Positions 6,574 to 64,000 of a DNA stretch of 64,000 nt are shown one piece after another. Made by a program: the position numbers and the translations under genes. The notes under the pieces are model-generated. The model was not told the origin of the DNA and ran no database searches. It saw only the letters and a program-made list of their open reading frames with translations. The stretch is from Acidobacteriaceae bacterium (GTDB lineage: Bacteria; Acidobacteriota; Terriglobia; Terriglobales; Acidobacteriaceae). The stretch covers positions 2,337 through 66,336 of the forward strand of contig JBMFWD010000013.1 in assembly GCA_049965615.1 (NCBI GenBank). Reading direction: 5' to 3'. The number at the start of each line of letters is the position of its first letter. Position 1 is the stretch's first letter.

Positions 6574-6931
6574 GCCGGAAGTGTATTCGATTGATGACCT
6601 GGAGCGTGACGGCGAGACGGTGTGGGATGGCGTTGCGAATCCGCAAGCTGTGGGCTACCTGGCGCGGATGCCGGTGGGCGAGAATCTAGTGATTTATCAC
6701 ACGGGCAATGAGCGCTGCGCGGCGGGACTGGCCAAGTGCGTGGCGGTGAATGCGGAGAATCCGAAGGTGCCGGAGGTGCGGATACAGTTTGTAAAGAAGC
6801 TGAATAAGCGGCGGACGCTGGCGGAGATGAAAGAGTTGCAGCTGTTTGCGGATTCGCCGCTGGTGAAGCAGGGGCGGCTGGGTGTGGTTCCGCTGACGGC
6901 GGCGCAGTATGCGTGGATTGCGGGCAAGTAG
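6551..6931 (+). CDS. EVE domain protein
   Basis: YLLKTEP..YSIDDL...WDGVANPQA, YHTG, QGRLGVVPLT; overlaps the yhaM-like stop by 23 nt. Confidence 0.9.
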   Translation: MAYLLKTEPEVYSIDDLERDGETVWDGVANPQAVGYLARMPVGENLVIYHTGNERCAAGLAKCVAVNAENPKVPEVRIQFVKKLNKRRTLAEMKELQLFADSPLVKQGRLGVVPLTAAQYAWIAGK

Positions 6932-59763: not shown

Positions 59764-59840
<77 letters not shown>

Positions 59841-59901: not shown

Positions 59902-60288
59902 TTAGCCGTTGACCATGCGGATGAGTTCGCCTACGGTGCGTGCGGCCTCGACGGGATGGCGGAGATGGGGTTCGCTGCGGACTGCGTAGAGGTTGCGGCG
60001 ACCTTGCCTGGTGATGACGAGATAGCCGCCTTCCCGCAACTCGTCAATGATGCGCTGGACGGCGCGCTCGGTGATGCCGACGTGATCAGCGAGGTCGCGC
60101 ATGCGAATTTCGGGATCGCGGGCGATGAGCAGCAATACGTGCGAGTGGTTGGTGAGGAATGTCCAGGCGTTTTTTTGCTGCACTGGCTGGAGCGTTTGCG
60201 GCGCAGATTCCTGTGCCTGGTGTGCGGAGGTCTGGACGCGGGATCTTGGTAGAGATCTGAGGGTGGGTTTGCGTAGGCTGTTCGGCAT
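59902..60288 (-). CDS. Winged helix-turn-helix transcriptional regulator (WTFLTNH type)
   Basis: WTFLTNHSHVL..IARDP..RMRDLADHVGITERAVQRII.EL.EGGYL...RQGRRN.Y. Confidence 0.88.
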   Translation of the reverse strand: MPNSLRKPTLRSLPRSRVQTSAHQAQESAPQTLQPVQQKNAWTFLTNHSHVLLLIARDPEIRMRDLADHVGITERAVQRIIDELREGGYLVITRQGRRNLYAVRSEPHLRHPVEAARTVGELIRMVNG

Positions 60289-60333
60289 GGGCGGGTTGAC
60301 CTCATTAAAGGCGATTCGCTAGACGCGATTTGT

Positions 60334-60359
60334 AATATACGAAATATATATCGTATATT
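60334..60359. promoter_or_regulatory. Palindromic operator / bidirectional promoter core
   Basis: AATATACGA-N8-TCGTATATT perfect inverted repeat centred in the regulator-icd gap. Confidence 0.65.
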
Positions 60360-60405
60360 GAATCTCGGAGATGATTACAAGTTTAGCTCCTGGAGGAAAC
60401 AGTCG

Positions 60406-61911
60406 ATGAGTTCGCAAGCCTTTGAATTGGTGAATGAGAGCGGAATTGGCAGCGTAGGGAAGGCGCGAGCGATTCCGATTACGGTAGCGGCCGGGGATGG
60501 GATTGGACCGGAGATTATGGCATCGGTGCTTTCGATATTGACTGCGGCGGGCGCGCATCTGGATGCGGAGTTTGTGGAGGTAGGCGAGCAGGTTTATCTG
60601 CGTGGTAATACTTCCGGGATTCCGAAAGAGGCCTGGGACTCGATTGCGCGGACGCGGGTGATGCTGAAGGCTCCGATTACGACGCCGCAGGGTGGCGGGT
60701 ACAAGTCACTGAACGTGACGATGCGGAAGACGCTGGGTTTGTATGCGAATGTGCGGCCTTGCCGGACGTACAAGCCGGTGGTGGAGACGCGGCATCCGGA
60801 CATGGATGTGGTGATTGTGCGCGAGAACGAAGAGGACCTGTACGCGGGCATTGAGCACCGGCAGACGCAGGATGTGGCGCAGTGCCTGAAGCTGATTACG
60901 CGGCGCGGGTCGGAGCGGATTGCGCGCTACGCGTTTGAGTATGCGCGGAAACAGGGGCGGCGCAAGGTGACCTGCATGGTGAAGGACAACATCATGAAGG
61001 TGACGGACGGGCTGTTCCACAAGGTGTTTGACGAAATTGCGCAGGAGTATTCGGAGATTGAGGCGAAGAGCCAGATTGTGGACTTCGGGATGGCGAATTT
61101 TGTGCACCGGCCCTCGGACTATGACGTGGTGGTGCTGCCGAACCTTTACGGGGACATTCTCTCTGACATCGCGGCTCAGATGACCGGCTCGGTGGGGCTG
61201 GGCGGCTCGGTGAACATTGGATCGGGCGGCGCGATCTTCGAGGCGATTCATGGATCGGCACCGGACTTGCCTGCGGATGTCGCGAACCCTTCGGGGCTGC
61301 TGCTGGCCGGCGTGGAGATGCTGCGTCACCTGGGTCGCGGCGCGGTTGCGGCGAAGGTGATGAATGCCTGGCTGTGCACGCTGGAGGATGGCATCCACAC
61401 GCGGGATATTGCGGGGCCACACACGGTGGAGCATGCGGGTACGCGGCGCTTTACCGAAGCTGTGATTGAGCGGCTTGGAAATCGTCCAGAGAAACTGGCG
61501 GCGGTGGACGAGCCGGTGGAGAGTGCGGAGGCAGAGGCAGAGTCGGGCGCGATTTCCATTGAAATTCGCAAGACTGTGCATGAAGAGAAGGTGTTGGCTG
61601 GCGTGGATGTGTTTGTGGACTGGGACGGCATTGCTCCGGGCGAGCTTGCGATTCGCCTGCAGGCTGCAGCCGGGACGCTGTTCGAGCTGAAGATGATTAC
61701 AAATCGCGGCGTGAAGGTGTGGCCGAACGGAAACGAGAAGACACTGTGCACAGACCACTGGCGCTGCAGGTTTGAGGCTGGCGGCAGAAAGATTGAGGAT
61801 GTTGCGGAGCTGCTGCTGAAGCTGGCTAACTCGGGGATTGAGTTCATCAAGACGGAGCATCTTTACCAGTTTGATGGGAAGCCTGGGTATTCGATGGGGC
61901 AGGGACAGTAA
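60406..61911 (+). CDS. icd: Isocitrate dehydrogenase (Rickettsia/Xanthomonas/Thermus-type with C-terminal extension)
   Basis: GDGIGPEI, KAPITTP..SLNV..RK, RENEEDLY, KDNIMK, NLYGDILSD, FEAIHGSAPD; tail ITNRGVKVWP..DHWRCRF. Confidence 0.92.
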   Translation: MSSQAFELVNESGIGSVGKARAIPITVAAGDGIGPEIMASVLSILTAAGAHLDAEFVEVGEQVYLRGNTSGIPKEAWDSIARTRVMLKAPITTPQGGGYKSLNVTMRKTLGLYANVRPCRTYKPVVETRHPDMDVVIVRENEEDLYAGIEHRQTQDVAQCLKLITRRGSERIARYAFEYARKQGRRKVTCMVKDNIMKVTDGLFHKVFDEIAQEYSEIEAKSQIVDFGMANFVHRPSDYDVVVLPNLYGDILSDIAAQMTGSVGLGGSVNIGSGGAIFEAIHGSAPDLPADVANPSGLLLAGVEMLRHLGRGAVAAKVMNAWLCTLEDGIHTRDIAGPHTVEHAGTRRFTEAVIERLGNRPEKLAAVDEPVESAEAEAESGAISIEIRKTVHEEKVLAGVDVFVDWDGIAPGELAIRLQAAAGTLFELKMITNRGVKVWPNGNEKTLCTDHWRCRFEAGGRKIEDVAELLLKLANSGIEFIKTEHLYQFDGKPGYSMGQGQ

Positions 61912-61934
61912 GCAGCCGTGGATCAAGGAGGAGC

Positions 61935-61966
61935 GGCGCAGAGGAGAAATCCTCTGCGCCCTTTTT
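61935..61966 (+). terminator. Intrinsic terminator after icd
   Basis: GGCGCAGAGGA-GAAA-TCCTCTGCGCC then CTTTTT. Confidence 0.85.
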
Positions 61967-62041
61967 GAGCGCATCTGGAATTTTCATGGCGGTACGGCCT
62001 ATGATAGGTGTTTGCTATTAACCAGGAGTACATACCATTCC

Positions 62042-64000
62042 ATGATGAAAACAGCTTGTTTTGTTCTGGCTTCCTCTGTTTTGCTGGCCACTGGCGCGTT
62101 TGCGCAGAAGCAGCCTCAGCCTCAACCGGAGCCGGTTCCGTGGCCTCCGGCAATTCCGCGGCCTATGGATAAGCCCTACGTAGGGCCGATTCAACTGACG
62201 GTGAATGTGACCAATACGACGGACCGGGTGGAGCACGCGCATGAAGTGATTCCCGTGGTGCCGGGCTCGAAGCAGATGATTCTGCTGTATCCACAGTGGC
62301 TGCCGGGTGATCATGAGCCGGACGGGCCGATCAAGATGCTGGGCGGGATTGTAACGACGGTGGACGGGCATCGCGTGCAGTGGGTTCGCGACCGAGTGAA
62401 TATGTATGCGTTTCATGTGCCGCTGACGCCGGGCGCAAAGACGGTTGGACTGGACTTCGATTATCTTTCGCCGATTAAGCCGAGCGCGGGGCGCATTGAG
62501 ATGTCGAAGGCGCTGATGGACCTGGAGTGGAACGAGGTGCTGATGTATCCGGCGGGGTATTTCTCGCGGGATATTCCTTTCGACACGACGCTGATTCTGC
62601 CGAAGGGGTGGAAGTATGCGACGGCGCTGGAGACGGCTTCGGACATTGGGAATACGGTGAAGTTTCAGCAGACGCCCTTGAACACGCTGGTGGATTCGCC
62701 GCTGTATGCGGGGCTTTATTATGCGCGGTTCAACCTGTCGCCGACGAAGACCGATATTGTGCACCTGAACATTTTCGCGGACAAGCCGGCGGACCTGAAG
62801 ATGACTCCGGAAGAGCTGCAGCTGCACAAGAACTTGGCGCTGCAGGAGGACAAGCTTTTTGGATCGCACCACTACAAGCACTATGATTTCCTCCTGCTCC
62901 TGAGCAGCAAGGTGGGCGGCGTAGGGCTTGAGCATCACCAGTCGAGTGAAGACGGATTAGGCCAGGACTACCTGACGAACTGGAAGGGCGGAGTGCTGGA
63001 GCGTGACCTGCTGGCGCATGAGTCGACGCACTCGTGGAACGGGAAGTTCCGGAGGCCAGATGATCTTTGGACGCCGAACTTCAACGTGCCGATGAGGGAT
63101 GACCTGCTGTGGGTTTACGAAGGCATGACGCAGTATTGGGGCAATGTGCTGACCGCGCGCGCGGGCATGCGGACGAAGGCCCAGACGCGCGATATTTTCG
63201 CTCGCGTGGCAGCAGGCTTTGCAGTGGCGAAGGGACGCGACTGGCGTCCGCTGATTGATACCACGAACCAGCCGATTATTTCGCAGCGCACGCCGGTTAG
63301 CTGGGTGAGCTGGCAGCGTCCGGAAGACTATTACACGGAGGGAATGCTGGTATGGCTGGCCACGGATACGAAGATTCGGCAGCTGACCGATGACAAGAAG
63401 AGCCTGGATGACTTCTGCAAGAAGTTTCTGGGCGTTTACAACGGCAGCATGATTACAGACCAGTACGATTTTAACGACATAGTGAAAGATCTGAACGCGG
63501 TGACGCCTTATAACTGGGCGAAATTCCTGCGGACTCGGATCTATGATCTGCATCCGGCGGTGCCGATGAGCGGGTTTACGCGCGGCGGCTACAAGCTGGT
63601 GTACAACGACACTCCGGTGAAGTGGATGCAGCAGGAGCTTGCGAAGCTTGGCGTTGCCGACTTCTCAACTTCGCTGGGGATTACGGTAGGGCAGTATCGC
63701 GGTCAAGGCGCGCCCGGCATGATCGGGAACGTGAACTGGGAGAGCCCGGCGTTCAAGGCGGGGATGGTTCCGGATACGCAGCTAGTCTCAGTGAATGGGG
63801 AGGCTTACTCTGCGAAGGTTCTGCAGGATGCCATTCTGAAGGCAGAGAAGGATAAGCAGCCGATCGAGATACAATTCCGGCGCGGAAAGAAGTACACGAC
63901 GGTGTCGGTGCCGTATTACGGAGGGTTGCGGATTCCTCATCTGGAGCGGGTGGCCGGTACTCCGGATTACCTGGACCAGATTCTGTCGCCCAGCAAGAGT
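62042..64000 (+). CDS. M61 glycyl aminopeptidase family protein with PDZ (3' end truncated by window)
   Basis: Open frame from ATG 62042 to the window end, absent from the ORF track; signal peptide; PQWLPGDH, GLEHHQSS, LAHESTHSWNG (HExxH), LLWVYEG. Confidence 0.9.
   Translation, partial: MMKTACFVLASSVLLATGAFAQKQPQPQPEPVPWPPAIPRPMDKPYVGPIQLTVNVTNTTDRVEHAHEVIPVVPGSKQMILLYPQWLPGDHEPDGPIKMLGGIVTTVDGHRVQWVRDRVNMYAFHVPLTPGAKTVGLDFDYLSPIKPSAGRIEMSKALMDLEWNEVLMYPAGYFSRDIPFDTTLILPKGWKYATALETASDIGNTVKFQQTPLNTLVDSPLYAGLYYARFNLSPTKTDIVHLNIFADKPADLKMTPEELQLHKNLALQEDKLFGSHHYKHYDFLLLLSSKVGGVGLEHHQSSEDGLGQDYLTNWKGGVLERDLLAHESTHSWNGKFRRPDDLWTPNFNVPMRDDLLWVYEGMTQYWGNVLTARAGMRTKAQTRDIFARVAAGFAVAKGRDWRPLIDTTNQPIISQRTPVSWVSWQRPEDYYTEGMLVWLATDTKIRQLTDDKKSLDDFCKKFLGVYNGSMITDQYDFNDIVKDLNAVTPYNWAKFLRTRIYDLHPAVPMSGFTRGGYKLVYNDTPVKWMQQELAKLGVADFSTSLGITVGQYRGQGAPGMIGNVNWESPAFKAGMVPDTQLVSVNGEAYSAKVLQDAILKAEKDKQPIEIQFRRGKKYTTVSVPYYGGLRIPHLERVAGTPDYLDQILSPSKS

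Follow-up and report, generated by a model that had tools for sequence, protein, structure and literature searches.

The stretch of DNA analysed here (the window: 64,000 nucleotides (nt) of contig JBMFWD010000013.1 from an Acidobacteriaceae bacterium) carries, near its right end, two divergent genes and an inverted repeat between them. One gene, on the minus strand (59902–60288), encodes a winged-helix regulator of 128 amino acids beginning MPNSLRKP. The other, icd (60406–61911, plus strand), encodes a protein of 501 amino acids from an ATG at 60406, with a GGAGG at 60392–60396 nine bases upstream. Judged by full-length matches to NF006673 (719 bits; cut-off 509) and TIGR02924 (637 bits; cut-off 561), and by the Pfam domains Iso_dh (2.4e-90) and Isocitrate_DH_C_bact (2e-40), its product is an NADP-dependent isocitrate dehydrogenase (IDH) of the ~480–500-residue type with the bacterial C-terminal domain, the cofactor and activity being predicted. 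The 117-nt gap between the genes (60289–60405, midpoint 60347) contains the inverted repeat, which is 26 nt long (60334–60359) and centred at 60346.5. The original prediction, which read this arrangement as carbon-sensing control of icd, had the coordinates right. It had also described a perfect palindrome, and this holds for the arms, AATATACGA and TCGTATATT, of 9 nt each, and fails for the imperfect centre, AATATATA; complementarity is 92% when its halves are taken as 13+13 nt. A TATATT faces outward in each arm, as had been noted.

The window palindrome is not a product of chance. The string TATACGA-N8-TCGTATA has a single exact match in the 64 kb, and with up to three mismatches it occurs twice, against 0.30 expected. 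For a second measure we used a symmetrised position weight matrix (PWM) built from 28 sites of the wider regulator family with the window's own clade excluded (consensus ATACACGAAATATATTTCGTGTAT), in which the outer positions, on which no selection had been made, proved informative too. With this PWM the window site scores 31.9 bits, whereas the runner-up in the window reaches 12.9 bits and the maxima of 30 Markov-random windows range from 8.3 to 14.8 bits. On the basis of the PWM, its conservation and its architecture, we describe the element as a putative core operator, a 12-2-12 inverted repeat of the form AATATACGAAAT-AT-ATATCGTATATT (60334–60359), assigned to neither strand.

Comparison with relatives separates what is conserved in this gap from what is not. 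Close orthologues of the regulator (63–91% identity, on contigs from metagenomes and metagenome-assembled genomes (MAGs)) have a divergent icd in all cases. In their intergenic regions the arms are kept and the centre varies (ATATATA, AGATG, CTATG or ATATT). An alignment of ten intergenic regions linked to IDH, drawn from three acidobacterial classes and taking in MAGs labelled Blastocatellia and Vicinamibacteria, has its invariant columns clustered in the repeat, and the flanks are unalignable. In relatives the site lies 47–49 nt from the icd start, and its distance from the regulator gene is variable. The position of the palindrome at the exact midpoint of the gap, which the original prediction had pointed out, is therefore incidental, and we rejected it as a functional feature because only the icd-side distance is conserved.

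The repeat coincides with predicted promoter elements. A consensus scan places a sigma-70-like icd promoter on the plus strand at 60330–60359, with a −35 element TTGTAA (60330–60335), an 18-nt spacer and a −10 element TATATT (60354–60359), matching the consensus at 9 of 12 positions; TTGnAA and TATATT are both retained in the intergenic regions of the orthologues. A search of sequencing runs for transcript evidence gave none with more than 8% of the words of this stretch, and no RNA run. The putative operator occupies the spacer of this predicted promoter and overlaps both hexamers. On the minus strand, the TATATT at 60334–60339, as read from the sequence, would be the −10 element of the regulator's own promoter, for which the −35 candidate (TTCAAT, 60357–60362) is weak. 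Two further possible half-sites, like the core assigned to neither strand, flank the repeat: a CGA (60326–60328) 14 nt upstream of the inner CGA and a TCG (60365–60367) 14 nt downstream of the inner TCG. The outer CGA is present in seven of the ten aligned regions, the outer TCG (T91 C92 G93) is invariant in that alignment (A3), and an acidobacterial locus, L141, has the same four-half-site layout at 6676–6735 (ACGA-N10-ACGA-N8-TCGT-N10-TCGT), with TCGTAT repeated at the same spacing. Tentatively, these outer half-sites may bind a second dimer, or the right-hand one may mark the start-site region of icd.

To place the site in a wider context, we searched for relatives of the regulator. Homologues number 3,682 at E ≤ 1e-5 and carry generic names at NCBI and JGI. 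A search with the single protein gave only nine distant loci; an alignment-based scan with one genome per species gave 80 further loci, those most similar to the query, and all counts of neighbours and operators below refer to 90 non-redundant loci. The loci of the scan come from Planctomycetota, Myxococcota, Actinomycetota, Acidobacteriota, Armatimonadota, Bacillota, Pseudomonadota, Lentisphaerota and other phyla; among cultured carriers of the family are Myxococcus, Micromonospora, Nannocystis, Svornostia and Pseudoxanthobacter. We then looked for palindromes de novo in the 330 nt that precede the conserved W codon in 87 family genes, using all 3-mer and 4-mer half-sites at all spacings. The enriched patterns (CGAA-N6-TTCG, ACGA-N8-TCGT, CACG-N10-CGTG, CATG-N10-CATG and TGA-N8-TCA) are nested forms of one palindrome, with the consensus ATACACGAAAT-AT-ATTTCGTGTAT and the general form ATAYAYGAA-N6-TTCRTRTAT upstream of family members. 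The string A[CT]GAA-N6-TTC[GA]T, matched at 9 or 10 of its 10 positions, occurs in 31 of 90 upstream regions as against 45 of 1,609 background chunks. A site of at least 15 bits is present in 64 of the 90 loci, spread over at least eight phyla, and is nearly always intergenic and touching the regulator gene. The core ACGAA...TTCGT, which lies inside the hexamers, is kept in phyla in which the outer bases differ (for example, GTGTAT). The idea that the palindrome is an operator common to both divergent genes is supported by a 24–26-bp palindrome that recurs upstream of family members in many phyla and that overlaps the predicted icd promoter.

Where gene order is altered, the site precedes the partner gene: IDH genes in L045 and L088, dabB in L043, a purE-like gene 1.7 kb away in L040 and, in L030, a PAPS-reductase-like gene followed by sbt. 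The exact pattern ATATACGA-N8-TCGTATAT, sought over all genomes, occurs in at least 120 stretches. Among the matches listed, family or inorganic-carbon genes lie at 6 of 112 searched loci, the regulator adjoins the site in all six, and no target in trans was found. Ten genes that flank other high-GC matches are those of recombinases, an integrase, a beta-lactamase and the like, and exact matches away from the regulator are probably unrelated palindromes or chance occurrences. As an observation in its own right, versions of this pattern with GC-rich or other centres lie beside serine recombinase, tyrosine integrase and PD-(D/E)XK/Phd genes in L104, L165 and L181.

One subgroup of the family stands apart. 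In L099, L100, L023, L024 and L082, the regulator gene follows a DAHP-synthase and beta-propeller pair and precedes a BrkB-like gene. No operator of at least 14 bits was found within 10 kb in L099 and L100, and none of at least 15 bits in the ~4–7-kb loci of L023, L024 and L082. P0111, which has SFTFLTNH in place of WTF, shares the DAHP-synthase/BrkB context and has no operator within 10 kb. This subgroup may control a different or remote regulon.

The regulator itself belongs to no described family that we could identify. Its Pfam matches are HTH_24 and MarR_2 only (MarR_2 at 33.8 bits; cut-off 27), with MarR (PF01047) falling short at 20.7 bits (cut-off 24.6); HTH_5 and HTH_20 are absent from these matches, so that by sequence the protein does not qualify as ArsR/SmtB, and neither HTH_1 nor LysR_substrate is found among them. 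No specific NCBIfam model was found for it: weak ArsR/SmtB matches occur, all of them below the cut-off of every ArsR model (NF033788, for instance, gives 21.5 bits against a cut-off of 55). Among 38 aligned homologues, the motifs WTFLTNHxHVL, VGITERAVQRI, GRRNxY and LRHPVE are invariant or nearly so, and all of them occur in the window protein; the WTFLTNH signature singled out by the original prediction is nearly invariant, and the recognition helix GITERAVQRI does not vary at all. Nor is there variation at H48 and H111, and hardly any occurs at H50 and E114. Lacking cysteine, the protein is without the alpha3N CxC site, and the family alignment has LRHPVE as its conserved C-terminal motif, with no conservation of the alpha5 DxHx10HxxE pattern. 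An AlphaFold2 model (mean predicted local distance difference test score 77, core above 90) has a predicted disordered N terminus of ~40 residues and a core at residues 47–127, with helices at 47–57, 63–70 and 74–86, a wing at 90–103 and a C-terminal helix at 119–127. The top Foldseek matches to this monomer model mix ArsR/SmtB proteins (3cuo, 6j05, 6uvu, 3jth and 1r23) with MarR proteins, at E ~1e-3 and template-modelling scores of 0.4–0.6, and the best phmmer matches to Protein Data Bank (PDB) sequences are SmtB (8e-4), NmtR and CmtR, all weak (E 8e-4 to 0.045). We found no paper that mentions WTFLTNH, and searches of the literature on Dab and regulators, IDH/bicarbonate clusters, ArsR with carbonic anhydrase and CO2, purK at low CO2, and icd with ArsR yielded nothing on the family. 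On this evidence the family appears to be widespread and hitherto undescribed, and the machine would be of a known type, namely a small ArsR/SmtB-like autoregulated repressor with a 12-2-12 operator.

To identify partner genes, we called the genes in the 90 loci, clustered them by BLASTP and annotated the representatives. An IDH of the window's type is a neighbour in 22 loci, 19 of which lie outside the window's clade, and is mostly divergent from the regulator; an independent pipeline of gene calls also has a divergent IDH for P0026 and P0031. In two further loci a monomeric IDH (PF03971) lies directly downstream of the regulator. Regulator and IDH are thus paired in at least six phyla, in three arrangements and with two unrelated IDH types, and the link is a cross-phylum one rather than a local curiosity. 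The other recurrent partners are DabA (11 loci), DabB (9), SbtA-like proteins (Sbt_1; 9, once followed by a P-II gene), PurE (9–10), PurK (8–9) and beta-carbonic anhydrase (Pro_CA; 5), with pyruvate carboxylase and phosphoenolpyruvate carboxykinase (PEPCK) in one locus each; FabI also occurs, and Na_Ca_ex antiporters occur in four loci. Neighbours of ~400 amino acids that were tested for an IDH-like fold proved to be a subtilase, an LPG-synthase-like protein, a sortase and others, none of them IDH-like. At least one of IDH, Dab, Sbt, PurEK and carbonic anhydrase is present in 50 of the 90 loci, and in all but one of the seven most frequent partner families CO2 or bicarbonate is a substrate or product. 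The original prediction had named carbonic anhydrase, SulP and DabAB as frequent neighbours: carbonic anhydrase and DabAB are indeed there, joined by SbtA-like proteins, PurE/PurK and IDH, whereas SulP is absent from the recurrent neighbours of the 90 loci.

These partners also occur together. Mixed strings include icd-purE-purK in L025, icd with purE and purK nearby in L065, sbt...icd in L007, icd with carbonic anhydrase in L070 and fabI-purK-carbonic anhydrase in L028. The exact-pattern scan brought in two more loci, both from Acidobacteriota. In L141 a single operator separates icd from the regulator, and a beta-carbonic anhydrase gene comes next beyond the regulator, in the same orientation; in L164 such a gene is likewise the next one downstream of a regulator gene of its own orientation. 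When the regulators are placed in a maximum-likelihood tree, those linked to IDH lie scattered among those linked to Dab, Sbt and PurEK; at least five changes of partner are required by well-supported branches, and parsimony counts 15. The pattern resembles that of a single kind of regulator whose local partners can be exchanged, rather than that of an IDH-specific subfamily. Separately, in two alphaproteobacterial loci, ORFs of 95 and 189 amino acids with no Pfam match (L042, 3081–3368, and L063, 2839–3408, both on the minus strand) lie between the regulator and the SbtA-like gene; the 95-residue ORF faintly matches the C-terminal portion of PurK, and in L063 sbt is followed by the P-II (SbtB-like) gene.

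Eight loci (L020, L030, L041, L056, L066, L067, L068 and L089) have genes for a type-I-secretion-like ABC exporter at positions −1 to −3 or +1 relative to the regulator, in many cases accompanied by HlyD and an outer-membrane factor (OEP). Five of them (L020, L041, L056, L067 and L068) have an operator scoring 20 bits or more within the shared intergenic region or on its border.

Around the window's own locus, a terminator-like hairpin followed by a T-run was found by sequence scan 3′ of icd (61935–61960, plus strand), which suggests that icd is monocistronic here. An M61 glycyl-aminopeptidase-like gene and then a LigT/2′-5′ RNA ligase gene come after icd (window 61838–64000; also L010–L015 and L101), an order that is conserved in all close relatives and has no obvious functional link. 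On the other side, a tRNA-Glu(CTC) gene (59764–59840, plus strand) is convergent with the regulator gene and ends ~60 nt short of its stop codon.

We consider it fairly probable that the palindrome is the 12-2-12 operator of the adjacent ArsR-like regulator, and that icd belongs with it to an inorganic-carbon sufficiency regulon. The overlap with the promoters, the ArsR-like fold and the 12-2-12 site point to a repressor of both genes. In such a scheme, a regulator dimer would bind the core operator (two dimers, if the outer CGA and TCG half-sites are used), and the bound protein would occlude the icd promoter together with the regulator's own −10 element, shutting off both genes until a signal releases it. 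The partner gene set makes inorganic-carbon status the most likely signal, sensed directly or through a metabolite. The operator, its conservation, the pattern of neighbours and the overlap with the predicted promoter are shown by the analysis; we infer that the window's regulator binds the site, that it represses and does not activate, and what the signal is. A shortage of CO2 or bicarbonate would then lead to derepression and to more IDH, a major internal source of CO2, and in other lineages the same switch would also raise CO2 trapping, uptake and the most bicarbonate-hungry anabolic steps. For IDH itself, we favour a role as CO2 source over one as carboxylating enzyme. Comparative evidence thus largely supports the inorganic-carbon interpretation of the original prediction; that CO2 or bicarbonate is itself the signal, and that icd responds to CO2, we infer. 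Because a regulator family with a conserved operator adjoins, across many phyla, genes that make, trap or use CO2 or bicarbonate, icd is probably part of a regulated inorganic-carbon programme in ordinary heterotrophs.

A bolder form of this proposal, which we put forward only tentatively, is that the family is a direct CO2- or bicarbonate-sensing transcription factor of non-photosynthetic bacteria with a cross-phylum regulon, in which IDH would be a regulated internal CO2 generator co-induced with DabAB, beta-carbonic anhydrase, SbtA, PurK/PurE and pyruvate carboxylase. If true, this would make it a heterotroph counterpart of the cyanobacterial regulators of CO2-concentrating mechanisms, built on a minimal ArsR scaffold.

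Several points weigh against the preferred explanation. Strong repression of icd would be costly if this is the sole IDH of the cell. The icd promoter is a consensus match, and thus a prediction. No further inorganic-carbon gene was found in the 64-kb window, where icd is the sole visible target. Some 35–40% of the family loci have no inorganic-carbon neighbour, and the ABC/HlyD/OEP genes of eight loci do not fit a CO2/bicarbonate theme. The 80 loci of the scan are the most query-similar ones, so that IDH linkage may be over-represented. Finally, the conserved histidine and glutamate residues (H48, H50, H111 and E114) could possibly be ligands of a metal or an anion.

Among other explanations, the one that survives best keeps the operator and the repressor and changes the effector to a central metabolite (2-oxoglutarate, isocitrate, NADPH, 5-aminoimidazole ribonucleotide (AIR) or its N5-carboxylated form (N5-CAIR), phosphoenolpyruvate or pyruvate), which would report carbon/nitrogen or carboxylation status indirectly. 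The known cyanobacterial inorganic-carbon regulators, which sense metabolites and not CO2, set a precedent for it: NdhR responds to 2-oxoglutarate and 2-phosphoglycolate. IDH is moreover the commonest neighbour of the family, and PurE/PurK operons are frequent. However, no one metabolite joins DabAB, SbtA, beta-carbonic anhydrase, PurK, pyruvate carboxylase and IDH as simply as CO2 or bicarbonate does. We regard this explanation as unlikely; it departs from the preferred one in the ligand only, and the two overlap for that reason.

Rather less likely still is that the same operator and repressor answer to a divalent metal (Zn, Mn, Ni or Co), in the manner of classical ArsR/SmtB sensors, in which case the regulon would mirror metal enzymes such as the zinc-dependent beta-carbonic anhydrase and DabA and the Mn/Mg-dependent IDH. 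The weak similarity to SmtB, NmtR and CmtR among PDB sequences, the weak NCBIfam matches to ArsR/SmtB metalloregulator models, the 12-2-12 form of the operator, the invariant H48 and H111 with the nearly invariant H50 and E114, and the recurrence of exporter-type neighbours (ABC/HlyD/OEP, Na_Ca_ex and CorC) would all suit a metal sensor. Set against them are a Cys-free regulator without the alpha3N CxC site and without a conserved alpha5 pattern, and recurrent neighbours among which there is no metal-efflux P-type ATPase, cation diffusion facilitator transporter or metallothionein. Nor is there a zinc logic to SbtA, PurE/PurK, pyruvate carboxylase or PEPCK, yet all of these handle CO2 or HCO3−.

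A regulon for cytoplasmic pH, alkalinity or Na+ homeostasis is very improbable. Making and hydrating CO2 inside the cell would lower the pH of the cytoplasm, DabAB and carbonic anhydrase yield H+ along with HCO3−, SbtA-type carriers are Na+-coupled and Na_Ca_ex antiporters occur in four loci, but PurE/PurK, pyruvate carboxylase, PEPCK and FabI are neighbours of another kind, anabolic users of inorganic carbon and not pH devices. Least credible of all is that the palindrome amounts to no more than the −10 elements of two overlapping, divergent promoters standing back to back, to which no dedicated regulator binds, and that the gene adjacency is inherited synteny: the TATATT in each arm and the wide synteny among close relatives (M61 peptidase, LigT and DUF507) would agree with it, but the conserved core lies inside the hexamers and is kept even where the bases outside it vary, the site accompanies the target gene in loci of altered gene order, and the regulator–IDH pairing recurs across phyla, arrangements and IDH types.

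An inorganic-carbon regulon of this kind would address a general need. Carboxylations in purine, fatty-acid, arginine/pyrimidine and anaplerotic metabolism make heterotrophs dependent on bicarbonate, and many of them do not begin to grow at air-level CO2. To our knowledge, how heterotrophs sense and correct a shortage of inorganic carbon is largely unknown, outside the LysR systems of autotrophs. In Bacillus subtilis, a preprint describes how extra metabolic CO2 rescues strains without carbonic anhydrases and the transporter MpsAB, and counts IDH among the chief sources of CO2 and PurK among the consumers of bicarbonate (10.64898/2026.09.08.750065), and elevated CO2 is a recognised aid in the isolation of Acidobacteria (reviewed in PMC7661733). 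A conserved small regulator with a recognisable operator would offer a handle for computing the regulon in hundreds of genomes, a candidate CO2- or bicarbonate-responsive switch for biosensors and a mechanistic lead for CO2-assisted cultivation of Acidobacteria. It also suggests that flux through the tricarboxylic acid (TCA) cycle is perhaps tuned partly for CO2 output.

We found no paper on an IDH/inorganic-carbon regulon of comparable kind; individual features of the locus resemble known systems to different degrees. Placing a TCA-cycle IDH gene under a metabolic signal has precedents in Escherichia coli, in which ArcA and Cra act on icd, and in B. subtilis, in which CcpC acts on citZ-icd-mdh; those regulators are global or citrate-responsive, belong to unrelated families and are not known to be linked to CO2 or bicarbonate genes. 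MarR repressors share with the window's protein the Pfam matches above cut-off (MarR_2 and HTH_24) and the general scheme, proposed here for the window's protein, of a winged-helix dimer on a palindrome over a promoter, with autoregulation. Unlike them, the window's regulator has, in the structural model, a folded core of only ~80 residues that appears to be without the N- and C-terminal helices forming the MarR dimer interface and ligand pocket, and its operator is of the ArsR 12-2-12 type.

The closest mechanical likeness is to the ArsR/SmtB repressors (SmtB, ZiaR, AztR/AzuR, CzrA and CadC), small winged-helix proteins, dimeric in those cases, with a divergent autoregulated arrangement and an operator over the promoter; weak similarities in sequence or fold extend to SmtB, ArsR, HlyU and YgaV. 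The window's operator, AATAxxYGAAxx-xx-xxTTCRxxTATT, has the 12-2-12 build of published ArsR/SmtB operators, such as AATACCTGAACA-GA-TGTTCAAGTATT (PMC8790569). Unlike these repressors, the window's regulator falls below the model cut-offs, lacks cysteine and a canonical alpha3N or alpha5 site, and has motifs of its own (WTFLTNHxHVL and LRHPVE), and the neighbours of its family are CO2 and bicarbonate genes rather than genes for metal efflux or sequestration. In function, the nearest comparison is with the LysR-type regulators NdhR/CcmR, CmpR, CbbR and the LysR protein of dabBA, which control sbtA, cmp, ndhF3 and dab divergently through a palindromic operator and respond to carbon status. This resemblance is functional only: LysR-type regulators are proteins of ~300 amino acids with HTH_1 and LysR_substrate domains that serve RuBisCO-based CO2-concentrating mechanisms in autotrophs, whereas members of the window's family have ~100 amino acids, occur in heterotrophs and count IDH and PurEK among their partners.

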